A stretch of 64,000 nt of DNA from Minisyncoccota bacterium (GTDB lineage: Bacteria > Patescibacteriota > Minisyncoccia > JAHIHE01 > JAGLIN01): positions 29,978 to 93,977 of the forward strand of contig JAQVBZ010000002.1 in assembly GCA_028690055.1 (NCBI GenBank). The letters run 5' to 3'. The number at the start of each line of letters is the position of its first letter. The stretch's first letter is position 1. Under the pieces are notes generated by a model. That model was given only the letters and a program-made list of their open reading frames with translations. It ran no database searches and was not told the origin of the DNA. The translations under genes and the position numbers were made by a program. Shown here one piece after another: positions 4,301-44,256 of the stretch.

Positions 4301-4384
4301 GGAGTAGCGGGATTCATCCCGCGCGCATTTCGGAAACGTAATGTCCCGGTTCGGACAGCTGCGCAGACTAAAGTCTGTTACTCC
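4301..4384. repeat. REP/BIME-like inverted doublet: GGAGTAGC + hairpin CGGGATTCATCCCG + GCGC ... GCGC + hairpin CAGACTAAAGTCTG + TTACTCC
   Basis: Left arm 4301..4326 and reverse-complement right arm 4358..4384. The same architecture recurs at 7342, 22659, 35175 and 44150. Confidence 0.7.
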
Positions 4385-4413
4385 ATGACACAATGCGCAT
4401 CCGAATGACGGGT

Positions 4414-5013
4414 TCATTCAAACTCTTTTCTCTCCTCCAACGCATGCGATACTGTCATTTCATCGGCGTATTCGAGGTCTGAGCCGGTGGAGAGGCCACG
4501 GGCCAGGTGGGTGATTTTGAGGTTGAATTCTTTGAGGCGTTTCACGAGATACATCGCCGTGGTTTCTCCTTCGATGTTGGGGTTGGTGGCTATGATTATT
4601 TCTTTGACTTCGCTTTTTTTGATTCTTTCGATCAATTGTTCGATATTCAATTTCTCCGGACCGGAGCCTTCGTGGGGCCTGATGGTGCCGCCTAGGACAT
4701 GGTAGAGGCCGTGGAATTTTTTGGTATTCTCGATGACCGGAATATTGATCGCTTCCTCGACAATGCAAATGATGGAACGGTCGCGCTTGGGATTGGAGCA
4801 GAATTCACACAAGTCCATTTCGGAGACATTGAAACAATTTTTGCAGATTTTGGTCTCACGTTTGAGCTCGAGTATGGCATCGGACAAGAGCTGTACTTCG
4901 GATTCGGATTTTCGGAGTAGATAAAAAGCGTAGCGGGTAGCGGTGCGGGGACCTACGCCCGGGAGCTTGGAAAATTCTTGGACGAGATTTTTTAGCGATT
5001 TCGGCTGTGACAT
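4414..5013 (-). CDS. recR: Recombination protein RecR
   Basis: N-terminal helix-hairpin-helix (LPGVGPRTATRYAFYLL), C4 zinc finger (CKNCFNVSE...CEFC) and Toprim region. 199 aa. Confidence 0.95.
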   Translation of the reverse strand: MSQPKSLKNLVQEFSKLPGVGPRTATRYAFYLLRKSESEVQLLSDAILELKRETKICKNCFNVSEMDLCEFCSNPKRDRSIICIVEEAINIPVIENTKKFHGLYHVLGGTIRPHEGSGPEKLNIEQLIERIKKSEVKEIIIATNPNIEGETTAMYLVKRLKEFNLKITHLARGLSTGSDLEYADEMTVSHALEERKEFE

Positions 5014-5118
5014 AAAACTATAGATAATTGTTTCTGTATTTTATAGAGATGCGTTGCACGCGTCTCGGATTTCAGGGTAAAATGTCATTGAAAATCAATA
5101 AGGTTAATTTTACCGATT

Positions 5119-5168
5119 CTTCTCCCTCGCACTGATCCTCTCCCGATGGGAGAGGGGAAGAGACTTTT
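5119..5168. repeat. CCTCTCCC-GATG-GGAGAGG hairpin repeat (family 3, short copy)
   Basis: tctccctcgcactgatCCTCTCCCgatgGGAGAGGggaagagac. Related copies at 12946, 33226, 40310, 50322 and 62322. Confidence 0.6.
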
Positions 5169-5201
5169 TTGGTGCATAGTAATCTAGGTTTATATGAACT
5201 C

Positions 5202-6599
5202 TTATTGCTCGCTGTGCTGTACATCCATATCTACGAAGCTGGTGTATTCTTGTTTGAAGTAAAGCTGTATTTCTCCGATTGGTCCGTTGCGGTGTTTGGC
5301 GATAATGATGTCGGCGATGCCGGTTTTTTCTTCGCTTCGTTTGGCGCGGTCTTCACGGTAAATGAACATTACTACGTCCGCATCTTGTTCGATGGATCCA
5401 CTTTCTCGCAGGTCGGAGAGTTTCGGTTTCTGGTCATCGCGTGATTCGACTCCACGCGAAAGCTGGGAGAGGGCGATAATAGGGATACGCAGCTCTCTCG
5501 CCAGTCCTTTGAGGGAACGGGAAATCTCACTGACCACCTGTACGCGGTTTTCGATATTGGCGCGGCCTTCGATGAGCTGGAGGTAATCGATGACAAGAAG
5601 GCCTAACCCGTGTTCGGCTTGAAGACGTCGTGCCATAGTGCGCATTTCCATCACATTCAGCCCTGCGGTATCATCAATGAAGAGAGGCGCTTCGGAGAGG
5701 GTTCCGATGGCGTGGCCGATGCGCGAGAAATCGTCATTTTCTCCATTAGAGGAGAGGTTGCCGGTGCGCATCTTCCAGAGATCGACGTGCGCTTGAGAAC
5801 AGATAAGTCTGTCGATGACTTCACTTTTGGACATTTCCAGAGAGAAGATGCCGACTGGAACTTTATGTTTGACGGCAGCCTGACGGGCGATGTCCATTGC
5901 GAACGATGATTTACCCATACTAGGGCGCGCACCTAAGATAACAAGGTTGGATTCTTGCAATCCCGACAGTAGACTATCCAGATCCCGAAAACCTGTCGGT
6001 ACACCGCGTAGTTGGCCTTTGTTTTTACTGAGATCGTCAATGCGTTCGAAAGCTTCCTCCAACATCGGTTTGACGGCGGTGAAGTCTTGGCGGATATGCT
6101 TCTGGGAAACGGAGAATATTTTTTGCTCTGCCAGGTCAAGTACTTCGTCCACTTCATTCTTCTCATCGTAAGCATTGCCGATGATTTGTGAGGCGCTGTC
6201 GATTAGCTTACGCAATATCGCTTTTTTCTCCACAATCTTGGCGTAATGAACGATGTTGGCGGCGGTAGGTACGGTATTGGCAAGTGATGCCAGATAGCTA
6301 TGGCCGCCGATCCTTTCCAAATGGTCGGTTTCCTTGAGTCGATTGGAGAGGCTGAGGAGGTCGATCGGCTCGTGCTTTTCGTAAAGGTATAGCATAGCCT
6401 CGAAAATCTTATTGTGAGAGTCTTTGTAGAAATCTTCCGGTGTGATGAAATCGGCGATTTTGATGACGGCATTTTTGTCAATCATAAGCGATCCCAACAC
6501 TGATTGTTCCGCTTCCACGTTTTGCGGTGGCATCCGGTCGGTACTGTTGAATTCAGTCTTGAATTCGGTTTTAGGCTCAGTTTTCTTTTTCTTCTCCAT
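5202..6599 (-). CDS. dnaB: Replicative DNA helicase DnaB
   Basis: N-terminal PPQNVEAEQSVLGSLMID motif; Walker A GARPSMGKSSFAMD; RecA-like C-terminal domain. 465 aa. Confidence 0.95.
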   Translation of the reverse strand: MEKKKKTEPKTEFKTEFNSTDRMPPQNVEAEQSVLGSLMIDKNAVIKIADFITPEDFYKDSHNKIFEAMLYLYEKHEPIDLLSLSNRLKETDHLERIGGHSYLASLANTVPTAANIVHYAKIVEKKAILRKLIDSASQIIGNAYDEKNEVDEVLDLAEQKIFSVSQKHIRQDFTAVKPMLEEAFERIDDLSKNKGQLRGVPTGFRDLDSLLSGLQESNLVILGARPSMGKSSFAMDIARQAAVKHKVPVGIFSLEMSKSEVIDRLICSQAHVDLWKMRTGNLSSNGENDDFSRIGHAIGTLSEAPLFIDDTAGLNVMEMRTMARRLQAEHGLGLLVIDYLQLIEGRANIENRVQVVSEISRSLKGLARELRIPIIALSQLSRGVESRDDQKPKLSDLRESGSIEQDADVVMFIYREDRAKRSEEKTGIADIIIAKHRNGPIGEIQLYFKQEYTSFVDMDVQHSEQ

Positions 6600-6707
6600 A
6601 TTTGATTTTCGTTAAATTACGTATGAAAGAAGTATAACATCGAAAGGTTTTTGGCAAAAGGGGACAGCTTGTGGATGAGATTTGCTGTGTATCTCGATAT
6701 TTTGTAT

Positions 6708-6753
6708 CGTGTCATTCCGGAATTTTGATACTGCAAAATATCCGGAATCCCCG
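6708..6753. repeat. Family-2 palindromic unit (cGTGTCATTCCGGAA...TCCGGAATCCCcg)
   Basis: A 46-bp long hairpin; reverse complement of the unit at 7292..7334. Confidence 0.6.
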
Positions 6754-6828
6754 TGCCAAGCCGATAAAATGTTATAATTTTCGGGTAATCTGTGATAGGA
6801 TAAAAATATAATTATTTTTTATGATCTT

Positions 6829-7203
6829 ATGTATGAAGTTCCGCCTAGTTTTGAAAAAAAACCGGAGCATATTCCAACTTTGGAAGAGATAAAATGGGTA
6901 TTGGAAGAATTAATGAAAGGAGAAAATTACAGTGAAGTCCGTTGCCTTAAAGATTCAGAGGGTATATATCTATTTGAAGTTAAAACTCGTGATAAATTAA
7001 CTGGTGAAATATTAGTACATAGCTATACAAGAAAAGGGCATCGCGAGAACTTCCCTAAGAGTTCTGAAACGGGGGTAGATATAGTCTATTACAAAGATGA
7101 AGATGCTTACAAAAAAGAGGATGTTGAATACGCAGAAGTTTTGGCAAAATATGTTGATGAAAATTGGGAGCTTCAAGCTAATGGAAATTGGGAAGATCTT
7201 TAA
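6829..7203 (+). CDS. Hypothetical protein, 124 aa
   Basis: ORF from the track; no convincing RBS; no recognisable domain. Confidence 0.35.
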   Translation: MYEVPPSFEKKPEHIPTLEEIKWVLEELMKGENYSEVRCLKDSEGIYLFEVKTRDKLTGEILVHSYTRKGHRENFPKSSETGVDIVYYKDEDAYKKEDVEYAEVLAKYVDENWELQANGNWEDL

Positions 7204-7291
7204 AAAAAGACATATTTTTATTTTTAAAAAATCCAGTCAGTTCGTTTCATTCGTAATATTCTGATATTATAAAGATACAAGGCATAATTAC

Positions 7292-7334
7292 GGGATTCCG
7301 GATATTTCGCAGTAGCGAAATTTCGGAATGACAG
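7292..7334. repeat. Family-2 palindromic unit (GGGATTCCGGATATTTCGC-AGTA-GCGAAATTTCGGAATGACAG)
   Basis: Same unit at 33366 and 45176, with compensatory stem changes (TTCAGGA/TTCTGGAA versus TTCCGGA/TTTCGGAA). Confidence 0.6.
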
Positions 7335-7341
7335 ATGAAAT

Positions 7342-7449
7342 GGAGTAGCAGGTTTCAACCTGCGCTGTTATCACATACAGGAACAATAAAACGTATATGT
7401 CGCATTTCTTCGGTTTGTTACAACCGCGCGGGATGAATCCCGCTACTCC
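7342..7449. repeat. REP/BIME-like inverted doublet (GGAGTAGC-CAGGTTTCAACCTG-GCGC ... GCGC-GGGATGAATCCC-GCTACTCC)
   Basis: Left arm 7342..7365; right arm 7426..7449 is the reverse complement of the GGAGTAGCGGGATTCATCCCGCGC type. Confidence 0.7.
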
Positions 7450-7522
7450 GCGAAGTATGTAATGTTTGGTCCGCGTAAATAGGGCACAAAATATTGTGTC
7501 CTTACGAATTGCAGCAGTATCG

Positions 7523-7552
7523 GGATAAAAAAATAGGCTCTTGCGAGCCTAT
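7523..7552 (-). terminator. Bidirectional rho-independent terminator at the cysS 3' end
   Basis: A-run / ATAGGCTC-ttgc-GAGCCTAT / T-run. The hairpin overlaps the cysS stop codon. Confidence 0.6.
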
Positions 7553-9003
7553 TTTATTTTGGTGATTTCAATTCCCTCCGGAGTATCTTTCGTTTCATAA
7601 CCCTTTTCTTTGAGTTCGTCACGGATACGGTCGGAGGTTAAAAAGTCTTTGGCGATGCGGGCTATTTCTCTTTCCTGAATAAGATTTAATATATATGCGG
7701 AGATGATGCTGCCGGTAGAATTCCGTATTGTAATGGTGCGATTTTCAGGGGAGGCAATGTTGATTGTCAGTGTTTCGGTCTCTATAGTGGAAACATTTGC
7801 CAGCCCGAGTCCCAAGACTTCGTCGAATTTGAGAAGGGTTACTTTTTTATCGATATCAGAAATTTCTTTGTTCTTTAGCAGTTCCCATACTAGGGCGATG
7901 GCGCGCGGTGTATCGAGGTTATCTTCTAGCGCAGCTTGGAATTTTTTTGCGTATTCGTCAAGCACTTTGCCTTCTTCCTGGTCGTCGATGGAGCTGATAA
8001 AATTGAATAATTTTTCCAAAGCATTTTCGCTGTCTTGTAAACTCTGCTCAGTGAAGTTCATCTGAGTTTGGAAATGGGCGGTTAGGCAGAGATAGCGGTA
8101 GGCGAGAGGATTAAAACCCTTGTTCTCGATATCCTTGAGGGTATAGAAATTGCCTTTGGATTTGGACATCTTTTCGCCGTTGACCAGTAGGAATCGGGCG
8201 TGCACCCAATAATTCACGAATTTCTTGCCAGTCGCACCTTCGCTCTGCGCTATTTCGTTTTCGTGGTGAGGGAAGATGTTATCTTCTCCGCCGGTATGGA
8301 TATCCAGCGTCTCGCCCAAGTTGGAGATACTCATTGCCGAACATTCGATGTGCCAGCCGGGATAACCCACGCCCCATGGGGATTCCCATTTCATCAGGTG
8401 CTCCTCTCCGGCTTTGAGCCAGAGTGCGAGGTCGTAAGGATTCTTCTTGTCGGGGTTGGCTTCGAGGCGCGCGCCGATTTTGAGATTTTCCAGAGCGTTG
8501 CCGGAAAGCTTGCCGTAGCCCTCGAATTTATCAATGTCATAGTAGACCGAGCCGTTCGATTCATAAGCGTATCCTTTTTCGAATAGTCTTTGGATGAGTT
8601 CAATCATCTGCGATATATATTCTGTGGCGCGAGTGAATTTGTTCGCAGGTAGGATGTGGAGCTTAGCCTCGTCCTCATGAAAAGCTTCTTCGTAAAATTT
8701 GGCGATGTCATAAGGATTTTTATTTTCCCGCTTGGCGGCTTTGAGCATCTTGTCTTCGCCGGCATCGATGTCGTCCTGCGTCAGGTGTCCGACATCTGTG
8801 ATGTTTTTGATATGTTTGACATTATAGCCTGAAAAAAGCAGGGTGCGGCGCAAAAAGTCCGCCATCATAAACGTGCGCAAGTTGCCGATGTGCACGTAAT
8901 CGTAGACGGTAGGACCGCAACTGTACATCGTTACCTCGTTGCCATCTATAGGTTTGAGTTCCTCGATTTGTTTGGAGAGAGTGTTGTATATTCTAAGGGT
9001 CAT
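7549..9003 (-). CDS. cysS: Cysteine--tRNA ligase
   Basis: HIGN motif ([12 protein letters not shown]) and KMSKS motif, class I aaRS. 484 aa with the typical CysS N-terminus [12 protein letters not shown]. Confidence 0.95.
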
Positions 9004-9819
9004 ATTTTTTGCTACGGATTAACTCTATAAATTATCGCATACTTGATTTTTTTGGCAAATAAAAACGGCCCTAAAGCCGGAAAAACGATAATATGACAAT
9101 TGTTGCCAATAAAAAAAGGCGCTAAAGCTGGTTGGTATGAGGAATTATGTGCGAGTAGGAAGCTCCCTGTTTTTTAAGTTGTTCCGTTTTTTTGTAATCC
9201 AACTTAGAAAAGCTTCCTAATAGGCAAGCTTCGGTCTATCGGAAAAAAGAATCATTGTAAAGGGTCCGTAATTAGCGGATTTTAAGTCGAAAAAATATGT
9301 CTTTTCGGGCGATGGCGCTTCGATAGGTCTTTTTATGAAATTATGAAAAAACAAAGTCTTATTGACTTTGTGTTTTGTTTGATTTTTTTTAGGGGGCAGT
9401 AAGGAAGAATTTGATAATAGAATAATAGAAAAGGTTTTTTCAAATTCTTCCTTACTGCAAAGGGTTTCCGTTCCAGGACGTTGGGGGTGTATCCGTGGAA
9501 AGCGGATATTCAGATAAGATCTTTTATTTTTGTCTTATCTCTTATTCTTTCTTTTCCAGAACTCTAGTATCGTAGCACATAAAAAATAAATCGTAAAGGG
9601 GTGTGAGATAAAATAAAACAGCCTTCCTTCAGTGAAAGCGTTTTTGTGGGAAGGGGGGGGGCAGTCTCGTGGCATATTTTTGGTATTGCAAACTTGAATA
9701 TCATGTTAAGGATTCCTCGCTCCTTTCCCCGGGTCTCATTTGTTATGACCTGCATTGAGTCTAGCCTAAGTCTTTTTTACCAAGGAAAGCAGATGCTTCG
9801 GAGTGACGCTTTCCAAAGA

Positions 9820-10737
9820 CTATAACCACTTCTTGTATTTGAAAAAGAAGAAAGAAAAAAGGCTGACACATACCATCATCAGCAGAATAAGTTCAAAACC
9901 GTGGTCTTGCTGCATAAAAGGCATACCCATGACGGTGTTCATTCCGAAGATGCTGGCGATGAGGGTGAGCGGGAGGACCATAACGGAGAAAGCGGTGAGG
10001 ATTTTCATCGTGTCGTTCAGGCGGTGGGAAAAAATGGATTCATTGGTCTGTTCCAGCGCCTCGATCATTTCTTTGTAATTTTCGAGTGTGTTCCATACCT
10101 TGATGTTGGAGCCGATGACCTCGGTAATCTCACGCCGATAGTCGTTGGGGGAAATCTTGGGCGTGAAATGGGATAAGCTCTCCAATACCGTGCGTTGCGG
10201 TTTCAGGGATTTGCGAAAGCCGATGACGTCATGTTTGACGTAGGCGATTTCTTGTAGGAGCTTTCTTTCATCACCGATAAACATTTTGGCCTCGATCTGG
10301 TCGATATGGTCGTCGATATGGTCGAGCATCGGCATACGGGTGTCTATGAGCTTATCCAATATGAGATAGAGCATACAGACTGCGTCTTTTTGCATATAAT
10401 AGTTTTTCACTTCTATCTCTTTCTCGCATTTATTAAAAACTCTTTTGAGTTCCGGCAGGTAACTGCAGTGGCTGGTAATCAAAGTATTGCGAAAAAGGAT
10501 CAAATCGAGTTCGGTCGAAGTGGTTGCGCGCGCTTCGGGATTAAAGATAGGGAAGTGAATAACAATAAAGAGATATTCACCGTAATCTTCCACTTTGGGG
10601 CGTTTGATACTGGGGATAAAATCCTTGAGGACATTCGGTGCGATATGATAATTCGCTTTCAGAAAATGCACCGAGCTCTTGTTGGGAGCAACGATATTTA
10701 CCCATGTGATATCTCCGTTTTTTATTTCCTTGATCAT
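9820..10737 (-). CDS. corA: CorA-family Mg2+/Co2+ transporter
   Basis: C-terminal two TM helices with a GMN motif (IFGMNTVMGMPF). 305 aa, typical CorA size. Confidence 0.85.
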   Translation of the reverse strand: MIKEIKNGDITWVNIVAPNKSSVHFLKANYHIAPNVLKDFIPSIKRPKVEDYGEYLFIVIHFPIFNPEARATTSTELDLILFRNTLITSHCSYLPELKRVFNKCEKEIEVKNYYMQKDAVCMLYLILDKLIDTRMPMLDHIDDHIDQIEAKMFIGDERKLLQEIAYVKHDVIGFRKSLKPQRTVLESLSHFTPKISPNDYRREITEVIGSNIKVWNTLENYKEMIEALEQTNESIFSHRLNDTMKILTAFSVMVLPLTLIASIFGMNTVMGMPFMQQDHGFELILLMMVCVSLFSFFFFKYKKWL

Positions 10738-11190
10738 TTTTGTTTCTATGATATTTATCTCGCATTAACTTGATTAGATTATAACCTTTTTGGATTTGAT
10801 TGACAAATGAAGCTTATATGTAAGCTGTCAATTTAGTCGTAACAAACAGGGACGCTTGCCGACCCATCGCACTCTTAACTTTTTATTCCAGCCAAAAGTT
10901 TCGATATGATGTATTTTGATTCCCCCATTGAGAGGGGTGGCGCCAACATAAGAATAGCGTTGTTGTCGCGCGAGGGGGGGCGGTCTGTGACTCATAACTT
11001 CAATATCACATAGCGATTGCGTTTATAGGACGTAAATCGTCAGTAATCAGCCGTTTAAACACATCCCCTCGCAACGTTATGACTAAAGTCATAACGGCTC
11101 TTTCCTCTCGGGAGGGGAATCTTTAAATTCGAACTCATTTGGAATTAAATATGTCATAGTAAGCGTAGGTGGGTTGGGTGGCACTTGTTC

Positions 11191-11218
11191 TTGACTTCAT
11201 TTTTAAAACTTATATAAT
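11191..11218 (+). promoter_or_regulatory. Sigma70-like promoter of the hrcA operon (TTGACT-16-TATAAT)
   Basis: TTGACT at 11191..11196, TATAAT at 11213..11218, immediately upstream of CIRCE. Confidence 0.55.
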
Positions 11219-11222
11219 GAGA

Positions 11223-11249: not shown

Positions 11250-11267
11250 TGAAGATTAAATATTTGT

Positions 11268-12041: not shown

Positions 12042-12044
12042 TCT

Positions 12045-12890: not shown

Positions 12891-12945
12891 CAGGTTGGTT
12901 CATATCATATCATAACAAAGAATGCGAATAGGTTTGACGGGCAAT

Positions 12946-12992
12946 TATTCTCCCTCACACTAGCTCTCTCCCAGTAGGAGGGGAGGGCGAGA
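12946..12992. repeat. Family-3 repeat (degenerate copy)
   Basis: ttctccctcacactagCTCTCTCCCagtaGGAGGGGAGggcgag. Confidence 0.5.
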
Positions 12993-15022: not shown

Positions 15023-15064
15023 TTTTTCTGTGTCGGGTTAAAATATATTGTTTTGTATCCTGTA

Positions 15065-15092
15065 GAGACGCGATTTATCGCGTCTCTTTTGT
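15065..15092 (+). terminator. Rho-independent terminator after dnaK (GTAG + AGAGACGCGAT-tt-ATCGCGTCTCT + TTTT)
   Basis: Perfect 11-bp stem and T-run. The same hairpin sequence recurs as an inverted pair at 26225..26314. Confidence 0.75.
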
Positions 15093-15115: not shown

Positions 15116-15141
15116 GGAGTAGCGAGCTTTAGCCTACGCGG
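15116..15141 (+). repeat. Single REP-like unit GGAGTAGCGAGCTTTAGCCTACGCGG
   Basis: Shares the GGAGTAGC leader and GCG tail with the doublets; the hairpin is degenerate. An unrelated long hairpin follows at 15171..15230. Confidence 0.4.
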
Positions 15142-19051: not shown

Positions 19052-19203
19052 TTGTCATCCCGAAAATCGTACTCGGTTGAGGGATCTGGGAAATACAAGA
19101 AGTCTGCAAAAATGTTATCTTACTGACAAAATTTCCTACTCGCATCGTACCCTTCCTAGATTCCTCAATCGCAGTAGCTCATTTCGGAATGACAAAACCG
19201 GAG
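19052..19203. repeat. Family-2 MITE-like element inside the efflux operon (TIR ttGTCATCCCGAAA ... TTTCGGAATGACaa)
   Basis: Terminal inverted repeats plus inner inverted repeat cggttgagggatc / gattcctcaatcg. Lies between the MFP and ATPase genes. Confidence 0.55.
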
Positions 19204-21227: not shown

Positions 21228-21316
21228 GTGTCATTCTGAACGCAGTGTAACGGAGCGAATAATCCCGTCACTACGTGGGACATGGCGGGATTCTTCGGGG
21301 TACCTCAGAATGACAG
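21228..21316. repeat. Family-2 MITE-like element between the two permease genes (GTGTCATTCTGAA ... CCTCAGAATGACAG)
   Basis: TIRs plus an internal CCCGTCACTACGTGGGAC hairpin; the right half matches 47794..47836. Confidence 0.55.
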
Positions 21317-21354
21317 GTAAAATAAAAAAGTAATTGTTAATATTTGAATAGCAT

Positions 21355-22658: not shown

Positions 22659-22785
22659 GGAGTAGCAGGTTTCAACCTGCGCGGTTATCTCAAACCGATG
22701 GATATGTTTTTCTATAGCACGGGGTATTATACCGCTATAGCATTCATTCACATCGGACAGCCGCGCGGGATGAATTCCATTACTC
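22659..22785. repeat. REP/BIME-like inverted doublet
   Basis: GGAGTAGCAGGTTTCAACCTGCGC at 22659..22682 and degenerate inverted GCGCGGGATGAATTCCATTACTC at 22763..22785. Confidence 0.6.
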
Positions 22786-24781: not shown

Positions 24782-24871
24782 CGTGTCATCCTGAGGTAAG
24801 CACGAAGGATCCCGTTATGTCCCACATATTGACGGGATTCTTCGCTCCGCTCTGCTGCGCTCAGAATGACG
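24782..24871. repeat. Family-2 MITE-like element (cGTGTCATCCTGAGG ... GCTCAGAATGACg)
   Basis: TIRs and an internal ATCCCGT...GACGGGAT hairpin. Confidence 0.55.
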
Positions 24872-26224: not shown

Positions 26225-26314
26225 CCTGTAGAGACGCCGATTTATCGCGTATGATCCATCGAAAAAAACACATTACTCCGCATTCCGAGACGCGATAAAT
26301 CGGCGTCTCTACAG
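26225..26314. repeat. 26-bp near-perfect inverted repeat (CCTGTAGAGACGCCGATTTATCGCGT / ACGCGATAAATCGGCGTCTCTACAG) with a 36-bp spacer
   Basis: 25/26 complementary; the same hairpin sequence as the dnaK terminator. Confidence 0.7.
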
Positions 26315-33102: not shown

Positions 33103-33109
33103 CAAAATT

Positions 33110-33135: not shown

Positions 33136-33225
33136 GGGCAGAAGTTTATCATTGCGAGGAGGTACTCCGCGGCAATCCCGAAACTATGCAGACAAAATAC
33201 ACTAAATTAACTAAGTCTGTGAAAT

Positions 33226-33335
33226 AATTATTTCACTTTTATTCCCCTTCACCCCGACCCTCTCCCGGTTGGAGAGGGAGAAATTCCAAATGCAGTGTGA
33301 CTGGATTGTAGAACAGCTTTAGTTAATTTGGTATC
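33226..33335 (+). repeat. Family-3 ~110-bp element (TTATTCCCCTTCACCCCGACCCTCTCCC-GGTT-GGAGAGGGAGAAATTCC...GATTGTAGAAC...TTAATTTGGTAT)
   Basis: Near-identical to 40310..40415 along the full length; lies upstream of pyrG. Confidence 0.65.
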
Positions 33336-33365
33336 AGTGTGTCAGACGTATCGTGGTTACGGGAT

Positions 33366-33407
33366 TCAGGATATTTCGCAGTAACGAAATTCTGGAATGA
33401 CAGGTAA
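33366..33407. repeat. Family-2 palindromic unit (GGGATTCAGGATATTTCGCAGTAACGAAATTCTGGAATGACAG)
   Basis: Carries compensatory stem substitutions relative to 7292..7334. Confidence 0.6.
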
Positions 33408-35174: not shown

Positions 35175-35280
35175 CGGAGTAGCAGACTTTAGTCTGCGCT
35201 GCTATCCTATGCGGATAGAACGTGCGATTGCGAAGGGTTTAGCGGTTTTGGATAAACGCGCAGGTTGAAACCTGCTGCTC
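35175..35280. repeat. REP/BIME-like inverted doublet (GGAGTAGC-CAGACTTTAGTCTG-GCGC ... GCGC-AGGTTGAAACCT-GCTGCTCC)
   Basis: Arms at 35175..35198 and 35257..35280. It overlaps the track's 35265 start of the next ORF, which argues for the later start at 35433. Confidence 0.7.
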
Positions 35281-37249: not shown

Positions 37250-37676
37250 TGTTTTTCGCAACCTAGGAGCCTATCTTATTTTTTGTACTTATTATCATAG
37301 AAATTTCCCCTTTTTTCTTGTCAAAGCGATGATATCGTGCTAGTTTGTAAATATGTTTGATAAAGATGAAGCAAAAACAGAAGCGACAGGAATAGGAGAA
37401 AAATGGCCGAAGGGAGGTTATTCTCCGAGAAACTCATTGTCTGAGTCTGGTTAGCCCATTATAAAAGAATTAGGAGGATCGATTTATTATTGCGGCATAA
37501 TATGTATTGCATATATTCTAGGGCTTACGATGTTGATTCTGGGAGTTATTATTTCCTGTTGTTTTAGAAAAAAAGATATCTATTAAAATTTTTTTAAGAT
37601 TATCGTCGCAGACTTTTAAAGTATTTGCTGTTAATAGGATAAACTTCTTAACAGCTTTTTTATTTGATAATAAGGT

Positions 37677-38213
37677 TTGAATGTGCTATCTTTCTTAAAG
37701 CAGAATAAAAATATAAAGGAGGTAGATAAAATAACAGAGGAAATATTTTCTATTCCAGTTTCTTTGAAGATAGAGTTAAAAAAAGTTCGAGAGATTTGCG
37801 ACTCATTGGCGCTGGCAGAAGCTAGAGTTAGGGAGTTAATCGCTTCGATATACGAAAAAACGCAAAGGTTTAACGAAACAAGCGGATGCTTGTTTGTGGA
37901 TACTGAACAGATGATTCCTGACTGGAATCCTCACTGTACCTTCGGTAGCTTGGATGAAACGGTGCACTTTCTGGTGAGGAGGGTAGGAAGGCGTGAAGGC
38001 GTTGTCGGGGAAGCGGAACTCGAGAAAATGAGGTGCGACCTGCAGGAATTTCTGATGAAAGCGTTTGATGGTGAGGAGACACAGATAGAAGTGGAATTTA
38101 CTCGGGATTGTCTCGGGTACGAACCAAAAAAATATGGACATAAGAAAAAAGAAACGGCCGAGAGCGATTCGTGCTCTGCAATTCTGTTTTCAATAGAGAA
38201 TCAGATCAGCTGA
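37677..38213 (+). CDS. Hypothetical protein, 178 aa
   Basis: ORF from the track. No recognisable domain. Confidence 0.4.
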   Translation: MNVLSFLKQNKNIKEVDKITEEIFSIPVSLKIELKKVREICDSLALAEARVRELIASIYEKTQRFNETSGCLFVDTEQMIPDWNPHCTFGSLDETVHFLVRRVGRREGVVGEAELEKMRCDLQEFLMKAFDGEETQIEVEFTRDCLGYEPKKYGHKKKETAESDSCSAILFSIENQIS

Positions 38214-38342
38214 TTCTTTTTTATTACAATCAAAACCAACCCCGATTCTGCCGATGTGTGAGTTTAGAGCGATAGCTTCCTTATAAGGATAACACTATGA
38301 TCGCCTGATCATTATTCCCTTGCATCTACATAATCCCAAAAC

Positions 38343-38431
38343 CGTGTCATCCTGAACTTGTTTCAGGATCTTTGTCCTATTAAGCATTAACGATATACAA
38401 TGAAGATTCCGGATTAAGTCCAGAATGACAT
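38343..38431. repeat. Family-2 MITE-like element; the left TIR GTGTCATCCTGAACTTGTTTCAGGATC is identical to the TIRs of the tandem elements at 51748..52172
   Basis: Left hairpin ATCCTGAA-cttgt-TTCAGGAT; right end CCAGAATGACAT. Confidence 0.6.
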
Positions 38432-38585
38432 ATAGAGAAAGCAATATACCATGAAAAACAGATATGAAATTACAGTAAGCATTAAAATACGTATTAAATA
38501 GATTTGAATCAATAGAGCCTGTCAAAGTAATGTGTCCAACCCGCCAAACCGATACCCTTGGCGATTAAGCCGGAGGTATAGTCAT

Positions 38586-38618
38586 TAAAAAAAACAGGCC
38601 CTTTCGAGCCTGTCTTTT
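38586..38618 (-). terminator. Bidirectional rho-independent terminator downstream of rpmA
   Basis: A-run / ACAGGC-cctttcga-GCCTGT / TTTT. Confidence 0.65.
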
Positions 38619-38638
38619 GAAACTTAGACCAAAAAATA

Positions 38639-38953
38639 TTATTTGGTAGTTTTCTTTTCCGGATGGGTGGGAATGTGGTCTTTGACGACGCTGACAAATT
38701 GTACTCTCTTCTTTCTTCCGTCGAAATTAGTAATCTGTTTCTCTGAGAATTTTACAAAACCTTCTGAGATTGAGAAAATTGTGCGGTCTTTACCTTCTTT
38801 TACGCCTGTGCCGGGTCGGAATTTGTTGCCGATCTGCTTGATGATGATGCCTCCGTCTTTGACGAACTGATTACCAAAAACTTTGACACCGAGATATTTC
38901 GGCTTGCTGTCTTTTAGGTTGGACGCTGTTCCACCAGCTTTCTTATGTGACAT
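38639..38953 (-). CDS. rpmA: 50S ribosomal protein L27
   Basis: MSHKKAGGTASNLKDSKPKYLGVKVFGNQFVKDGGIIIKQIGNKFRPG matches the L27 signature. 104 aa with a C-terminal extension. Confidence 0.93.
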   Translation of the reverse strand: MSHKKAGGTASNLKDSKPKYLGVKVFGNQFVKDGGIIIKQIGNKFRPGTGVKEGKDRTIFSISEGFVKFSEKQITNFDGRKKRVQFVSVVKDHIPTHPEKKTTK

Positions 38954-38968
38954 GGTATTTGTACTTAA

Positions 38969-40222
38969 CTATTTATTATTCTTTAAAACTATTATTTCAC
39001 GAGCTACTTTCTGCTCAGGTCGGGAATAAATGATGGTATTCCTCTTGGTGATCCGAGTGTCTGCGCTCTCAAATTGCTTATCAAGTGGACACACCCTAGA
39101 ATAACCTAATTTTTCCCAACTGTCAATGAATTCTCCAAAAACGTACTCCTTGAGTTTGAGCTGATAAGCGGGGAGAGTAATCACGATTCTGCCGCCATTT
39201 TTGAGGATCGGTTTGACGTTCTGCAGGAAGCTGGTATAGAGTTTTTTCAAAGTGGAATAGTTTTCTTTGATTTCGACATTGTTAGGCATTTTTTTATAGA
39301 CCGGGCCCAAGGTCGACTCAGTGACAATGGCGTCGATAGAGTCTGGTTTGAATCTTTTGATCGCTTCGTTGTAGCTAGCTTGGAATATTTTATATTCGCC
39401 GTAAGTCAGGACATATTGTTTAGAGAGCCACTCGAGATTTTCTTTGCATTTCTCGATTTGCCTGTCGTTGGCATCTGAGCCGACGACGCGATAATCATCA
39501 AGGAGTGCTTCTTGGAGAATCGTACCGGTACCACAGAAGGGGTCGAAAATGGTCTGTCCTTCTTTGACCTGCGCCAGGTTGACCATCACCTGCGCCAGTT
39601 TGGGTGGCATCATACCGATTTTGGCGTCCTTTCCCGGTTTGTCATAGTCGCGTGCTCCGTAGCTTTCGATATCCTGCACAATAAGGGTTCGGCCCAGTAT
39701 GATTTTCTTGCCGTCGTAGATGATATCGAATTCGATACCCTTGTTGGTGTAAGTGAGCTTGTTGTTAAAAATGGTTGCAGTGGAAAGGGTGCTCTCTCGC
39801 GGGAGGGGGTAGACGATGCGTATGGAAAAATCTTTGAGCTCTTCCCGTTTGATTTTGGAGAAAGCGTCCAGAAAGAATGCCTGTGCGTCTTCTTCTTTAT
39901 TTTTTTCCGTTTGTTTGGTAAAATAAACGCTATAACCGACACTTTTCTTTCCTGATTTTTCTTCCAGAGATTTTCTGATATAAGACACGATTTCTTCGCG
40001 CACTTTGTCTTCGGTGCAATCTTTCAGCGCCTCGGCTATTTTGAGCGTTCCTCCCATCTGTACGAAGAGATTGCGTACGTCCAGCGGCTCTTTCATGTCC
40101 AAGATGAGGAATTTAGGGTCGAGAAGAACGACGCTGTAATCGACCTTGTATTTTTCCAGCATAGCCTGAATCTCACTGAGCGACATGGAAGGGGTCCGTC
40201 CCAAGAAAAAAATGTATTGCAT
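38969..40222 (-). CDS. THUMP-domain SAM-dependent RNA methyltransferase (UPF0020 / Trm14-RlmL-like)
   Basis: Motif I FDPFCGTGTILQEA and an N-terminal THUMP-like region. Cotranscribed with rpmA. 417 aa. Confidence 0.7.
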   Translation of the reverse strand: MQYIFFLGRTPSMSLSEIQAMLEKYKVDYSVVLLDPKFLILDMKEPLDVRNLFVQMGGTLKIAEALKDCTEDKVREEIVSYIRKSLEEKSGKKSVGYSVYFTKQTEKNKEEDAQAFFLDAFSKIKREELKDFSIRIVYPLPRESTLSTATIFNNKLTYTNKGIEFDIIYDGKKIILGRTLIVQDIESYGARDYDKPGKDAKIGMMPPKLAQVMVNLAQVKEGQTIFDPFCGTGTILQEALLDDYRVVGSDANDRQIEKCKENLEWLSKQYVLTYGEYKIFQASYNEAIKRFKPDSIDAIVTESTLGPVYKKMPNNVEIKENYSTLKKLYTSFLQNVKPILKNGGRIVITLPAYQLKLKEYVFGEFIDSWEKLGYSRVCPLDKQFESADTRITKRNTIIYSRPEQKVAREIIVLKNNK

Positions 40223-40309
40223 ATTTTTTAAAAAATTGATTTATAGATAAATTATAACAGATTAGCCGGAGTTGTGATACGACGCCGAATTAACTTAATC
40301 TGTGACATG

Positions 40310-40415
40310 ATGATTTTACTTTTATTCCCCCTCACCCCGACCCTCTCCCGATGGGAGAGGGGGAAATTTCATACTGTACGATTGGATTGTAGAATAAATT
40401 AATTTAATTTGGCAT
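40310..40415 (+). repeat. Family-3 ~110-bp element (TTATTCCCCCTCACCCCGACCCTCTCCC-GATG-GGAGAGGGGGAAATTTC...GATTGTAGAAT...TTAATTTGGCAT)
   Basis: Best-preserved copy; see 33226. Confidence 0.65.
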
Positions 40416-40648
40416 GATTTGTATTTTTAGGGTTTACTCATTTTTAATCAAAATCCTTCGATAACGTTTCCTCTTCTACCGGGAGAGTGGCAGGGCCCGC
40501 CCTTGATCCTCGATCAGGTCGAGGACAGGCTCTGATCGGGGGGGGGCAAGGGGTAATAAAAATTCAAAATGGCGCAAATTTTAAATTGAATCAGAAATAA
40601 ATCAGTCTTAAAATTAAGATAATATTTAAATCCGATAAAAATAAAAAT

Positions 40649-41095
40649 ATGTCGGCAGATGAAATCATTGACAAGTATCAGGTAAAAATCAAGATACTGT
40701 CCGTTTGCGTTTTGATTTTTTCTCTGGGCTTTGCCTGCGGTTATTATTATCTCAGTGAGAATAAAAGCGGAGCCGAAGTTGCCATAGAGGATAAAAGCGC
40801 GGACTGTTCAGCTCTTTTTGAAAGAAACGCCCGGGTAGCTGTCGTTAGTACTGTCACCGCTTCGAATTCTCAAAATGAAACGGCACAAGACTCGGCAGGT
40901 ATGGTTCTTTCCGAAACTATCTCCGGTGCAGAGGTAGTCGAGCATCAATTCGCGGCAAGTAAAAACAGTACTCTTTATCATACCCGAAATTGCCAATATG
41001 TCAAACGTATCAAGCCGGAAAATCTGGTATGGTTCAATTCGGCCGCGGAGGCAGAGGCAGCAGGCAAGACGGCGCATAGTTGTGTTGATGAGTGA
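40649..41095 (+). CDS. Hypothetical exported or membrane-anchored protein with an Ada-like metal-binding motif at the C-terminus
   Basis: N-terminal TM. C-terminal HTRNCQYVKRIKPENLVWFNSAAEAEAAGKTAHSC resembles the Ada_Zn_binding fold (C...ENxxFFxSxxEAxxAGFRPC). Confidence 0.45.
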   Translation: MSADEIIDKYQVKIKILSVCVLIFSLGFACGYYYLSENKSGAEVAIEDKSADCSALFERNARVAVVSTVTASNSQNETAQDSAGMVLSETISGAEVVEHQFAASKNSTLYHTRNCQYVKRIKPENLVWFNSAAEAEAAGKTAHSCVDE

Positions 41096-41232
41096 TTTTG
41101 ACTTTAAAGTTTGTTGGTGTTAGACTTTAGATAAGAAAAAGCACCTTGAAAAAGAGCGTAGGAAAAGATTCCTGGGCTCTTTTCGTACATTGAAAAATTA
41201 TCCCTTCACAGAAACAAAGGGGTGCGTGAAAT

Positions 41233-42195
41233 ATGTCGAGAGAAGCAAAGTGGGAAAGAGGTGTTCAATGGCCGGATAGGGATTGGACTTACCAATCCAG
41301 GTATATAAAGATGTGGCAATTAGAACAGATCGAAGATATGACCGGGCGCAAGCTGTCTAATCTTAAGAGAAAAAACCAACATCATCCTGTCCCCTCGGTT
41401 TTGGCGGATACGGTTGGATATCTTATGCGAATAGATTTTCAAACCGAAGATTCTCACTATTCTTTTATCATTAAGAATATCAGGAATTTGCTGAAACAGA
41501 TGGATTGTGCGGAGGAAGATATAGGGCAAAAAACCGAAGACAACAAAAATGGTAAGGGGAAAAAAGATGTCAGCATCAAGAAGATTAAGAATAAATTAAA
41601 AAGTTTGATTCTAGAGCTTGCGAGCCAAAACTATTATTATGTACCGCAGTTCTTGCACGAATTATTCAACAGGCTTTTTGCCGGCGAGCTTACTCCGGCA
41701 GAGGTTTTGCTCAAGCTGGAGTGGATGTTCGACAAGAGAAGAAATTATTGCGGAGAAAATAAAGAGAACCTTGTGGATTTTCTTTTAAGCGTATGCATCT
41801 TGGAAAAAAAACGCATCTTTACGAAGGCGGAAAAAGAAAGAATTCGCGTTATCAGAAATAGTGCGGATGATGTCCACCCCGTATTGTTGCTGAAAACGTT
41901 GGGGTTGGAAATAAGCGACATTGTAGATGCGCTGTCTCGATATTTTTTCCATCCCTATTGGGGAATGGAGAGATTCAAGAAGCATTTCTTGTTGCTGATG
42001 TTCTTAAAACCTCCCGATCGGCTGAAAAAAACTAACATGTCCATGTATTTGGAATACTACAAGCACAATGGTATCCATAATGTTTTGCGCAATATGAACG
42101 AGGAGGAGATACGGCTCTTAAAGTATTTTTTGAATCGTTTCTCACAAATGGAATGGGAAGACTCTAAAGAATCTCATCTGGATCAACATCAATGA
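41233..42195 (+). CDS. Hypothetical protein, 320 aa
   Basis: ORF from the track. Its 3' end overlaps the priA 3' end convergently by 32 nt. Confidence 0.45.
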   Translation: MSREAKWERGVQWPDRDWTYQSRYIKMWQLEQIEDMTGRKLSNLKRKNQHHPVPSVLADTVGYLMRIDFQTEDSHYSFIIKNIRNLLKQMDCAEEDIGQKTEDNKNGKGKKDVSIKKIKNKLKSLILELASQNYYYVPQFLHELFNRLFAGELTPAEVLLKLEWMFDKRRNYCGENKENLVDFLLSVCILEKKRIFTKAEKERIRVIRNSADDVHPVLLLKTLGLEISDIVDALSRYFFHPYWGMERFKKHFLLLMFLKPPDRLKKTNMSMYLEYYKHNGIHNVLRNMNEEEIRLLKYFLNRFSQMEWEDSKESHLDQHQ

Positions 42196-44134
42196 TCCAG
42201 TCTTTTTTTATAGAGCCAAGCAGCGTATCGCGGACTTGTCTATCAAGCCCGTTTTTATATTTGATGATGATGTGGTAGCGATATTTGCCGTATTCGCGGA
42301 AGCTTTGGGCGGGGAAGGGCGGCATAATTTCGAAATGGTCGCGCCAATTGCGGGTGAAAAGTTCTTTTTGCAATATTTCGTATTGCCACTTAGCTTCTTT
42401 CTGGCAGGCGTAGCGGTCGGTGTTTTTATAAATGAGCTTGATGAGTTTTCCTGCCGGAGGATAAGGAAAAGGCGACAGGCTCACACTCCGGTTTTTTAAT
42501 TCTTTTTTGTAGAAATCCGCGGCGGTTTGGTGTCTGATTTCATCGAAATATTTGTGCTCGGGTTTGCGGCTTTGGATGATGACGGTTTTGTTCTCGGCGA
42601 GCTGATAGATTTTACTCAGGAATTGGCGCGATTTCTCGTGCGAGCGGAAGCCGGGTGAGCTGAAAATTATTTCCGGGAAGATGACGGCTATTACGGACAG
42701 GTTGTTCATAGTAAAATTTTTCCAGACCATTTGTGTCCCTATGAGTATGTCGATTTTGCCTTTCTGGAAATCCGCGAAAACTTTCTGGTTCTGCTTGGCG
42801 TCTTTGGAAGTGCCGCTGTCCAGCTGGACGATGCGGATATTTTTGCCCTCGAAAAGCGTCGCGACTTCTTCGAAGATGCGTTCCGAGCCGCCGCCTCCGG
42901 ATCTGATGTTTTGCCCGTGGCACTCCGGGCATTCGTGCAGAGGCTCGTGGAGCTCCTTGCAGCGTGAGCAGTATAGTTTGCTCTTGAAGCCGATGAGCGG
43001 GCCTTGGCAGGTCTCACACTCTGCAATGTAGCCACAATCCTTACATTGATAGACAGTCTTTTCTCCGAGGCGGGGGATGAAGATCAGTACTTGTTTCTTA
43101 GCGTAGATATTTGTGAAGAGTGCCTCTTGCAATTTTTCGGAGATAAAAGTGTAATTGCCCAGCTTCCTCTCGGTGTCCATATCGATGAGCTGTGGTCGGG
43201 CCTGCGGTTTTGTGGAAATGTTGATGAGATGGAAGTCGTTTTGCGCGCGGTAATAGCTTTCCAAGGAAGGCGTGGGGGAGGAGAGGATGATGTTTGCTTT
43301 GTGGAGGGATGCGAGACGAATAGCGGCGTCTATGCCGTGATAGCGAGGGTTCTGGTCCCATTGTTTGTAGCTGGAATTGTGCTCTTCATCCGCTATGATG
43401 AGTTTTAATTTCGCGAAAGGGGCGAAGACCGCTTGACGGGACCCGATAATTATTTTTGCCTGTCCGCTTTTCACTTTTTGCCATTCGCTGAAATATTGGT
43501 TCTGGGTGATATCGCCCGAGAGGATGGCTACACGGTCCTCGCCGAAGCGGTCGATATAGAATTGCGCGATGCCGTAGATATCGAAAGACTCCGGCATCAT
43601 CAGCAGGGTTTGAGATTTCTCGCTTTGCTTTTCGATGAGGCGTCGATATAGGTCGTGCCTTTCCGAGCCGAGGCTGTGCAGGAGCAGGCAGTGGTCCGAA
43701 GTCTTGATTTCTCGGCGGACAGTTGTTTCTGTTTCTTTTGCAATAGCTTCCACTTTCGGCGCGGGGTTAAGTTTGATTTTCGTGCGCGCGGCGCGTTTGG
43801 TGACGGGAGGGAAGATTATTTTTATCACGAGCGACAGCGATACGAAATAATAATCGCTGACGAAGCGGGCGATTGCCAGTTGAGACTCCGACAAACTGAA
43901 GTCCGGCAGTAGCTCTTTGATATTCTTGAGCTTGAACTTGGTTTCGCTTTCTTTTCCGAAGGAAGCGACCACCCCCATAAGCTCTTTTCGGCCGAAAGGG
44001 ATTTTCACCGCGTCGCCGACCCGTATACTTTTTTGCATCTCAGGCGGAATCCGATAACTCCAAAATTGCGCCAAGTCTCGAGGGAGATTGGCGGCAGGAA
44101 TGACTTCGGCGATTTTGATTTCTTTTTGCAACAT
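42164..44134 (-). CDS. priA: Primosomal protein N' (PriA replication-restart helicase)
   Basis: N-terminal 3'-DNA-binding domain, Walker A and DEAH-type (ADEEH) helicase motifs, Cys4 zinc-binding region CKDCGY...CETCQGP...CSRCKE...CPECHG. The track start 44212 lies inside a REP element; the ATG at 44134 (MLQKEIKIAEV) is preferred. Confidence 0.9.
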   Translation of the reverse strand: MLQKEIKIAEVIPAANLPRDLAQFWSYRIPPEMQKSIRVGDAVKIPFGRKELMGVVASFGKESETKFKLKNIKELLPDFSLSESQLAIARFVSDYYFVSLSLVIKIIFPPVTKRAARTKIKLNPAPKVEAIAKETETTVRREIKTSDHCLLLHSLGSERHDLYRRLIEKQSEKSQTLLMMPESFDIYGIAQFYIDRFGEDRVAILSGDITQNQYFSEWQKVKSGQAKIIIGSRQAVFAPFAKLKLIIADEEHNSSYKQWDQNPRYHGIDAAIRLASLHKANIILSSPTPSLESYYRAQNDFHLINISTKPQARPQLIDMDTERKLGNYTFISEKLQEALFTNIYAKKQVLIFIPRLGEKTVYQCKDCGYIAECETCQGPLIGFKSKLYCSRCKELHEPLHECPECHGQNIRSGGGGSERIFEEVATLFEGKNIRIVQLDSGTSKDAKQNQKVFADFQKGKIDILIGTQMVWKNFTMNNLSVIAVIFPEIIFSSPGFRSHEKSRQFLSKIYQLAENKTVIIQSRKPEHKYFDEIRHQTAADFYKKELKNRSVSLSPFPYPPAGKLIKLIYKNTDRYACQKEAKWQYEILQKELFTRNWRDHFEIMPPFPAQSFREYGKYRYHIIIKYKNGLDRQVRDTLLGSIKKDWIIDVDPDEIL

Positions 44135-44149
44135 AGTTTGTTTATAAAT

Positions 44150-44256
44150 GGAGTAGCGGGATTCATCCCGCGCGGTTGTCCGATGCAAAAAAGAACATTT
44201 GAAACGGCTCATTCTGTCTGGCTTGGGATAGCAGCGCAGACTAAAGTCTGCTACTT
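44150..44256. repeat. REP/BIME-like inverted doublet (GGAGTAGC-GGGATTCATCCC-GCGC ... GCGC-AGACTAAAGTCT-GCTACT)
   Basis: Arms at 44150..44174 and 44235..44256; same hairpin pairing as the 4301 doublet. Confidence 0.7.

Follow-up and report, generated by a model that had tools for sequence, protein, structure and literature searches.

The DNA stretch examined here, referred to as the window, consists of 64,000 nucleotides from a Minisyncoccota bacterium (assembly GCA_028690055.1, contig JAQVBZ010000002.1, positions 29,978 to 93,977) and harbours, at six places between its genes, a short hairpin-forming repeat that resembles the repetitive extragenic palindromes (REPs) of other bacteria. The present analysis deals with the structure of this repeat, its distribution among related genomes of the Patescibacteria or candidate phyla radiation (CPR), and its association with genes for REP-associated tyrosine transposases (RAYTs).

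Repeat arms and doublets of the window

At all six loci a 24-nt unit, GGAGTAGC-N4-TTYA-N4'-GCGC, can be read directly. The window contains exactly 11 of these units, hereafter called arms, all located outside genes and organized into five head-out inverted doublets of 84-128 bp, in every one of which the GGAGTAGC heads face outward, and one solo arm. The original prediction, made from the sequence alone, had announced six loci sharing a leader, a hairpin and a GCGC tail, and all six contain what was described; the combinations of hairpin types it gave for the doublets (Y/Z, X/Y, X/Y, Z/X and Y/Z) are also correct upon reading the five doublets. The hairpin is present as well but its borders had been misplaced, since it consists of a 6-bp stem closed by a TTYA loop, e.g., GCAGGT-TTCA-ACCTGC instead of CAGG-TTTCAA-CCTG, and the announced doublet size of 105-125 bp does not correspond to the measured spans of 84, 108, 128, 106 and 108 bp. 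The arms, with starts and strands as given by a covariance model, are the following:

4301-4384 (84 bp), both strands: doublet E1, arms scoring 39.2 and 36.4 bits
4301-4324, plus strand: left arm of E1, stem GGGA/TCCC, type Y
4361-4384, minus strand: right arm of E1, head GGAGTAAC, stem AGAC/GTCT, type Z
7342-7449 (108 bp): doublet E2, with left arm 7342-7365 (plus strand) of type X, stem AGGT/ACCT, and right arm 7426-7449 (minus strand) of type Y
15116-15139, plus strand: solo arm, imperfect stem GAGC-TTTA-GCCT, tail ACGC, 22.7 bits
22659-22786 (128 bp): doublet E3, with left arm 22659-22682 (plus strand) of type X, 38.3 bits
22763-22786, minus strand: right arm of E3, decayed type Y, head AGAGTAAT, 23.7 bits
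35176-35281 (106 bp): doublet E4, with left arm 35176-35199 (plus strand) of type Z, 41.5 bits
35258-35281, minus strand: right arm of E4, head GGAGCAGC, type X, 33.7 bits
44150-44257 (108 bp): doublet E5, with left arm 44150-44173 (plus strand) of type Y, 39.2 bits
44234-44257, minus strand: right arm of E5, head TAAGTAGC, type Z, 30 bits

Doublet E1 occupies the space between rplU and recR, two convergent genes, directly past the rplU terminator hairpin (4258-4284), and E2 the space between a 124-aa open reading frame (ORF) and cysS, which are also convergent. The solo arm occurs downstream of dnaK and its terminator, and no partner arm was detected for it in the window. E3 lies upstream of rny, 33 bp past a permease gene of the macB/ftsX type, and E4 lies 35 bp past pyrG. 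E5 separates an AMMECR1-family gene from priA, two genes encoded by the minus strand; the PriA domain begins at residue 17 of the short reading of this gene, so that E5 is intergenic.

Trained on 73 distinct arms and applied to the window without filters, the covariance model readily separates the 11 arms (22.7-41.5 bits) from the next match, which reaches just 11.6 bits. Similarly, the simple pattern GGAGTAGC-N12-GCGC, for which at most 2 mismatches were tolerated, yields 15 hits in the window versus 2.1 +/- 1.5 (largest 7) in dinucleotide-preserving shuffles; 10 of these hits correspond to the reported arms, three to the 5' parts of tRNA-Pro genes and two to noise. Eight arms deviate at one position at most, and the other three exhibit a decayed head or stem. 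The density amounts to 0.17 arms per kb.

Hairpin anatomy and distribution among relatives

A degenerate pattern covering the X, Y and Z types and worth about 40 bits was used to scan 185,579 species-representative genomes. Among the matches listed it occurs at more than 87 loci, for about one chance match expected according to our estimate from its information content, and these loci are concentrated in about 17 assemblies, nearly all of them labelled Patescibacteria/CPR. For several assemblies, synteny with the window is observed at 65-84% nucleotide identity. Six of the loci (L009, L015, L032, L041, L054 and L084) are syntenic with the window despite the labels Candidatus Saccharibacteria, Candidatus Paceibacterota or Patescibacteria group, so that these class-level labels cannot all be right; owing to such inconsistent labelling of metagenome-assembled genomes (MAGs), no spread across classes is claimed. 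A few matching contigs are labelled Gammaproteobacteria, Clostridia or Dehalococcoidales, and one of them (L075) resembles the clade of the window. No match to the unit occurs in 2.9 million viral contigs, and carriage by phages was rejected on the basis of this collection.

A search of the literature for the motif itself returned primer coincidences only, and no paper of the searchable library was found to link REPs, RAYTs or REPINs (inverted REP doublets) with Patescibacteria, Parcubacteria, Saccharibacteria or CPR; a phylogenomic survey of the Y1 enzymes makes no mention of these groups either. It is thus plausible that, as originally proposed, the repeat family is undescribed. The presence of RAYTs is already implicit in the databases, where the corresponding NCBI model would label such genes in deposited MAGs.

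The anatomy of the unit was established from the window and 87 fetched loci, i.e., 659 kb and 224 arms, which together form a biased sample. The consensus reads Y-GGAGTAGC-N4-TTYA-N4'-GCGC-nGnTnTCC: a pyrimidine is preferred at position -1 (T 58%, C 37%), and past the GCGC the arm extends into the weaker motif nGnTnTCC. The 6-bp stem is made of G7-C8 and four variable inner pairs, whereas the head, the TTYA loop and the GCGC tail are conserved; the exact GGAGTAGC head, including its GTAG, occurs in 165 of 195 arms, and the unit accordingly recurs beyond the window with GTAG conserved. Pairing between T13 and A16 of the loop is possible and would reduce it to the two bases TY, which is the most frequent kind of loop among the GTAG REPs already known (PMC3733652). 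The inner four pairs display at least 28 distinct sequences, up to 25 of them within a single MAG, so that the three types X, Y and Z distinguished beforehand are real but represent only a small part of the stem variants of the whole family.

In spite of this variety the stem remains complementary and covaries across copies. Full complementarity of the four inner pairs occurs in 203 of the 224 arms, and the other 21 keep three of the four pairs, with arms among them that resemble G:T or A:C intermediates. Over the 73 distinct arms, 94.7% of cells are paired, as compared to at most 55.5% in slid controls, and 111 double-sided changes occur versus 37.7 +/- 8.4 in shuffles. The pattern used for fetching the loci itself favours complementarity, and the covariation was therefore measured again on 49 distinct arms, all those falling outside this pattern: 85% of their pairs are of Watson-Crick type versus 42% in shuffles (largest 54%). 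Mismatches of the G:T and A:C kinds are about equally frequent in the stem (14 versus 18), and nothing thus points to selection on one transcribed strand.

Folded as single-stranded DNA, four of the five doublets of the window are more stable than their shuffles (z from -3.4 to -4.7), both strands about equally, and adopt two local hairpins inside a larger imperfect palindrome; E5 is indistinguishable from its shuffles (z -1.5 and -1.7).

The doublet is also the dominant arrangement among the fetched loci, where 63 of 66 adjacent plus-then-minus (head-out) arm pairs fall within 49-177 bp. Solo, tandem and tail-to-tail arrangements are common too; tail-to-tail and tandem neighbours are spaced by 54-94 bp and occur in clusters, e.g., the 10 arms found inside 2 kb of L074. 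Doublets are usually heterotypic: homodimers account for 4 of 71, whereas arms paired at random inside each genome would give 12.6 (P about 0.003). A preference for heterodimers has already been documented in other REP families and attributed to the avoidance of long perfect palindromes (PMC3733652). Near-identical whole doublets, with spacers 92-100% identical, recur within the relatives represented by L081 and L098. No direct repeats suggestive of target-site duplications were found at the doublet borders.

The sites occupied by the repeat differ among relatives. The rplU/recR site (E1) is filled by a doublet in JBAXYM01 (L009) as it is in the window, the two being about 81% identical there. 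The stems differ, each genome having its own types, and the two JBAXYM01 arms share a bulged GCA(T)GGC stem. Between the two macB genes, JAQUYG01 has three arms where the window has none. Past the second macB gene, the E3 site is occupied in the window and in CAZKLR01 (L041), retains only a degenerate arm in CAZDCJ01 (L032), and shows no detectable arm in JAQUYG01 (L084). Occupancy therefore changes over the divergence that separates these genomes. Between closer strains, an apparently stronger conservation of the arms (0 differences over 120 nt) is not significant, with P about 0.07 obtained from an incomplete gene list.

Next to doublet E2, a 598-bp segment (6722-7319) comprising the 124-aa ORF, which has no Pfam match, is present in the window and missing from L090 and L091, about 96% identical to the window, where a short palindrome, GTCATTCCGGATTGAC, takes its place. 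Inverted repeats of 42 nt, which belong to a distinct palindromic family with TGTCAT termini, border the segment in the window, and it lies 8 bp from E2; the doublet is unchanged in the strains that lack the segment, and this indel is unrelated to the REP.

RAYT genes and the probable origin of the repeats

Listing the ORFs located between the more widely spaced arms of the fetched loci revealed two ORFs of about 175 aa (L061:1893-2414 and L081:2911-3438) which both match the Pfam family Y1_Tnp and carry the motifs HYHLL and NYIHHNPIKHG. Both pass the cutoff (80 bits) of the NCBIfam model for REP-associated tyrosine transposases, NF047646 REP_Tyr_transpos, with 99.1 and 87.4 bits for L061 and L081, respectively, and both fail the IS200 model NF033573 (cutoff 55) with 29.8 and 24.8 bits. 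A third copy adjoins the ten-arm cluster of L074, the end of the contig leaving just one flank visible. A protein search yielded 41 homologues, mostly on very short contigs, as expected if the repeats break the assemblies around the gene. Arms occur on both sides of the RAYT in L061 and L081, and whole clusters of arms on both sides in L092 (protein P0004), L098/L099 (P0002) and L186 (P0003). The best solved structure for P0002 is 4ER8, the TnpAREP protein of Escherichia coli bound to a REP (26.9 bits, E 3e-5), and the catalytic motifs are intact: HYH aligns with HMH (H59-M-H61), and YIHHNPVKH with YIYINPVKH (Y115...N119...H123), residues whose roles in the TnpAREP active site have been described (PMC3479197).

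Beside more distant homologues (39-55% identity; L101, L103 and L105), the flanking units are variants, namely GGAGTTC-N4-TTTA-N4-GTAA, GGAGTA-TAAAAC-TTTA-GTTTTA and GGATTyC-ACGC-TTTA-GCGT. In these lineages GTAG drifts to GTTC, GTAT or ATTC, the head and the closing pairs changing together, while the GGA head and the TTTA loop remain the most constant features. The occurrence of variant units beside diverged RAYTs indicates that the repeat and the enzyme co-vary.

The gene order RAYT-HisKA is found in five related genomes and continues, wherever the contig reaches (four genomes), with RR-T2SSE-T2SSF, i.e., a response regulator and type IV pilus genes; the more distant homologues sit in other neighbourhoods. 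This conserved environment looks like the vertical inheritance of a resident gene rather than that of a hopping insertion sequence, and the RAYT appears, judging from synteny, to be single-copy. The arm nearest the RAYT start codon is atypical, GGAGTGGC-GCGA-TTTA-TTGT-GCGC (L098 651-683, L061 1834-1866), and is directly followed by TGTTATAAT, a perfect extended -10 element located about 30 bp before the RAYT ATG; the putative binding site of the RAYT may thus overlap its own promoter, which would make autoregulation possible.

The wide recurrence of the unit, the conservation of GTAG, the covariation of the stem and the RAYTs flanked by the unit all support the original reading of the loci as a GTAG-type system of REPs or bacterial interspersed mosaic elements (BIMEs) with its RAYT. 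The loci probably represent a GTAG-type REP family of a Patescibacteria/CPR clade, arranged mainly in head-out, heterotypic, REPIN-like doublets and putatively spread by a RAYT. By analogy with TnpAREP and the Pseudomonas REPIN-RAYT systems, the RAYT, a monomeric HUH/Y1 endonuclease/transferase of single-stranded DNA, would bind the folded hairpin together with the GTAG head when the DNA is single-stranded, e.g., at the replication fork, and would then cleave and rejoin it nearby, allowing REP units or doublets to spread and to persist in intergenic DNA. The RAYT presumably moves the units, with the doublet as the likely mobile unit, and the genome of the window would still retain an active RAYT.

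Several observations weigh against this explanation. All REP sites are kept among contigs 96-100% identical to the window, with no REP insertion or deletion. The sole indel of a REP unit that was found, one 36-bp unit of the tandem array just downstream of the RAYT in L092 (10586-10621) relative to L095, two 20-kb contigs otherwise 4 substitutions apart, could result from slippage or from an assembly artefact or collapse. The spacers of the window doublets have diverged, and no near-identical doublets occur at different loci of the window. Neither a RAYT nor its usual neighbourhood is present in the window, so that the RAYT lying between inverted copies, which the original prediction had suggested looking for, was found in related genomes and not for the window's own organism. 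The contigs carrying P0002 (L098, L099) and P0003 (L186) were obtained from samples that also yielded contigs 96-97% identical to the window, but these RAYT contigs seem to derive from two further relatives present alongside; the lineages concerned are found in the digester samples ERZ27247350 and JGI 3300014204. For L098, identity amounts to 78-86% with JAQUYG01 and about 70% with JBAXYM01; for L186, to 92.7% with JBAXYM01 over the covered part of HisKA; and for the window, compared over different genes, to 73-84% with JBAXYM01 and 65-76% with JAQUYG01. The attribution of the RAYT contigs to the organism of the window was thus rejected, as these identities place them in JAQUYG01-like and JBAXYM01-like lineages. 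Tetranucleotide correlation gave no discrimination for linking RAYT contigs to the window organism, and a single metagenome scan with the RAYT-neighbouring HisKA gene returned no orthologue from the window's lineage. Finally, the RAYT of JBAXYM01 is cut off after about 24 codons (L028 490-780, JBAXYM010000005.1), with a palindromic element of the TGTCAT family, unrelated to the REP arms, just downstream; its intact orthologue is P0003 on L186 (sample ERZ27247350), with 23 of 24 N-terminal residues identical. Loss of the enzyme thus occurs in the clade, and the copies of the window may be relics.

According to this alternative, which is a serious possibility even if an unlikely one, the REPs were spread by an ancestral RAYT, the enzyme has been lost from the genome of the window, and the copies decay or persist through use by the host. 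The truncated gene of JBAXYM01, the lack of a RAYT in the window, the three decayed arms out of 11 with their diverged spacers, and the lack of REP polymorphism among strains 96-100% identical to the window are all in keeping with it, but eight of the 11 arms are still perfect or one position off, intact RAYTs occur in at least three co-occurring relatives, and the window represents only part of the genome.

It is rather unlikely that the arms are mainly elements serving the host and kept by selection instead of transposition, either as stabilisers or terminators at RNA 3'-ends or as sites in the DNA to which proteins bind, as proposed for the BIMEs of E. coli. Every copy of the window either directly follows a gene or separates convergent genes, doublets are found at the E1 site of two genomes about 81% identical at that place, and a related hairpin family, family B, doubles as the dnaK terminator. 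The arms nevertheless lack T runs, E1 and the solo arm follow separate intrinsic terminators, the balanced G:T and A:C mismatches give no strand-specific RNA signature, both orientations are found, and site occupancy varies between relatives. Such a role would in any case be compatible with spreading by a RAYT, the two explanations being not exclusive.

Two other explanations have very little probability. Miniature inverted-repeat transposable elements (MITEs) of a DDE-type insertion sequence, with the arms as terminal inverted repeats, would account for doublets of 84-128 bp with inverted ends, but hardly for flanks devoid of target-site duplications, for the common solo, tandem and tail-to-tail arrangements, for a Y1/HUH RAYT as the only transposase-like gene found between arms, or for a stem covariation that points to the recognition of a folded hairpin. 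Small structured RNA genes, one RNA per doublet, could be suspected from the four doublets that fold better than shuffles, but are extremely improbable considering the behaviour of E5 and the equal folding of both strands, the lack of any Rfam family match (at gathering thresholds only the three tRNAs are recognized in the window), the variable length and sequence of the spacers in the window, and the arms that also occur solo and in arrays without promoter-plus-terminator logic.

A tRNA-derived element was rejected, as the match to tRNA-Pro (one mismatch) involves only the acceptor/D-arm GTAGC...GCGC and the stem and loop of the repeat fit no tRNA arm; integron attC sites, CRISPR and DNA-uptake sequences were rejected as well, since the neighbours are housekeeping genes, no spacer arrays occur, and the covarying hairpin and the RAYT would be left unexplained.

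Within the RAYT-associated family, the inner stem pairs might themselves behave as modules. In the 32 pairs of doublets with spacers at least 80% identical, four share both stems and 12 share neither. In 21 pairs with spacers at least 85% identical, differences reach 21.4% at the stems, 9.0% in the spacers and 5.4% in the head/loop/tail frame, figures to be read with the reservation that the pairs are not independent and that their selection by spacer identity biases the spacer value downward. As an example, L098:333-440 and L098:468-575 have spacers 95% identical and right arms of AGGT/ACCT and AGAA/TTCT, respectively, i.e., two pairs changed on both sides without intermediate. More generally, doublets with spacers of 50-60 nt that are 85-100% identical frequently have different stems, each fully complementary, and at orthologous sites of related genomes the stem types are those of the respective genome. 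Stems differing between doublets with near-identical spacers hint at short-patch exchange between copies. It is quite doubtful that the inner stem pairs are exchangeable cassettes which an active process swaps or rewrites between copies; such a process could be, for instance, strand transfer catalysed by the RAYT or very short-patch conversion between REPs, with selection against long perfect palindromes acting on top, and the existence of G:T or A:C intermediate-like arms indicates that stepwise compensation also occurs. If true, stem exchange would represent a diversification activity of RAYTs at the DNA level not yet described. Neither the system nor the possible stem exchange overturns the current understanding, but the latter is worth following up.

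To our knowledge, work on REP and REPIN-RAYT systems has concerned almost exclusively Proteobacteria whose genomes are large, and Patescibacteria possess genomes among the smallest and most streamlined known. The density of REPs in E. coli is about 0.13 per kb, and the density of the window is thus similar or higher in what is likely a very small genome. This offers a natural test of whether such repeats are tolerated parasites or useful parts of a minimal genome. With its conserved head, loop and tail, its freely covarying stem, and RAYT/REP pairs co-varying across lineages, the family also provides a compact substrate for studying how RAYTs read hairpins. From a practical point of view, the repeats explain the occurrence of RAYT genes on very short CPR contigs and can break or mis-join CPR MAGs.

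Other repeats of the window and relation to known systems

In addition to the REP arms, the window contains further repeats, listed below:

15062-15088, plus strand: family B hairpin, GTAG-AGACGCGA-TTTA-TCGCGTCT followed by a T run, the dnaK terminator
26226-26250 and 26290-26314: arms of a family B head-out doublet, 25 nt each and 100% complementary (inverted repeat I18)
6710-7333, 19053-19194, 21229-21320, 24784-24871, 33357-33403, 38345-38430, 45172-45218 and 51323-52172: elements with TGTCATyCyGrA termini
5117-5157, 12945-12985, 33205-33288, 40288-40371 and 50322-50376: copies of the CACCCCGACCCTCTCCCGATGGGAGAGGG repeat

Family B, which can also be written as GTAG-AGACGC(C)GA-TTTA-TCGCGTCT, occurs in the related MAG JBAXYM01 as five near-identical copies with flanking T runs (L004, L005, L040, L069 and L082). 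The hairpins beginning with GTAG that had been noticed outside the six loci thus include a real second family, comprising the dnaK terminator and the repeat at 26226, whereas the rny terminator (24703) is a single case. The core of family B, CGCGATTTATyGCG, is similar to the atypical arm that immediately precedes the RAYT in L098 and L061.

The palindromic elements with TGTCATyCyGrA termini, of about 86-170 bp, are unrelated to the REP arms; no transposase was identified for them, and their cluster includes a 238-bp tandem duplication (51741-52165). The GC-rich hairpin repeat containing CACCCCGACCCTCTCCCGATGGGAGAGGG occurs in both orientations with copies of 41-84 nt, and similar sequences are found in the related MAG loci L076, L077 and L083. 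Three tRNA-Pro genes (TGG, CGG and GGG), separated by 0.7 and 1.2 kb, lie between 45609 and 47644, and their similarity extends into about 45 nt of sequence upstream of each gene (117-nt repeat, 68-75% identical). The stretches 54488-54659 and 57789-57959, which correspond to the 3' ends of neighbouring genes together with the sequence that follows, are 76-85% identical at a distance of 3.3 kb and look like a recent paralogous duplication.

With respect to known systems, the sequence family and its host group are new, and the architecture itself is already known. The closest parallel is the GTAG REP superfamily (Di Nocera et al. 2013, PMC3733652), in which a GTAG head similarly abuts a GC-rich stem (6-9 bp there), the loop is very short (here T-[TY]-A), sub-families arise by complementary stem changes, head-out (HH) dimers with spacers of 20-100 bp are formed with a preference for heterodimers, copies lie downstream of genes, and RAYT genes are flanked by repeats. 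The present family differs by the GGA that precedes GTAG, by its tail GCGC-nGnTnTCC and by an unusually high stem diversity, and its hosts, the Patescibacteria/CPR, fall outside the 8 phyla surveyed (PMC3733652).

Like the TnpAREP of E. coli (4ER8, PMC3479197), the RAYTs are Y1/HUH enzymes with the same catalytic constellation, i.e., HUH, Tyr, and Asn and His in YxxxNPxxH. The REP/BIMEs of E. coli also place GTAG 5' of a hairpin and associate several hairpin types in inverted pairs and clusters. The parallel with BIMEs drawn in the original prediction thus stands for the organization and not for homology, the protein identity being low and the repeats without any sequence relation; the REPs of E. 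coli (Y, Z1 and Z2), moreover, have longer, bulged stems and defined linker types, its BIMEs bind IHF and gyrase, and its TnpAREP cleaves at CT. With IS200/IS605 and the palindrome-associated derivatives of these elements, the system shares a Y1 HUH transposase, subterminal hairpins on single-stranded DNA and the lack of target-site duplication, but the proteins fail the IS200 model, the gene does not occur as repeated identical copies, and the short repeats vastly outnumber it.

The REPIN-RAYT systems of Pseudomonas were reportedly described by Bertels and Rainey in 2011. As in these systems, an inverted REP doublet is perhaps the replicating unit, and the RAYT is flanked by REPINs, syntenic and apparently vertically inherited (PMC5581495). 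The REPINs of Pseudomonas are mostly homotypic and able to fold into a single long hairpin, whereas the two arms of the doublets considered here almost always differ; and, in contrast to the 6-7 Mb of a Pseudomonas genome, the genome of the present host is likely, from its CPR affiliation, to be very small.

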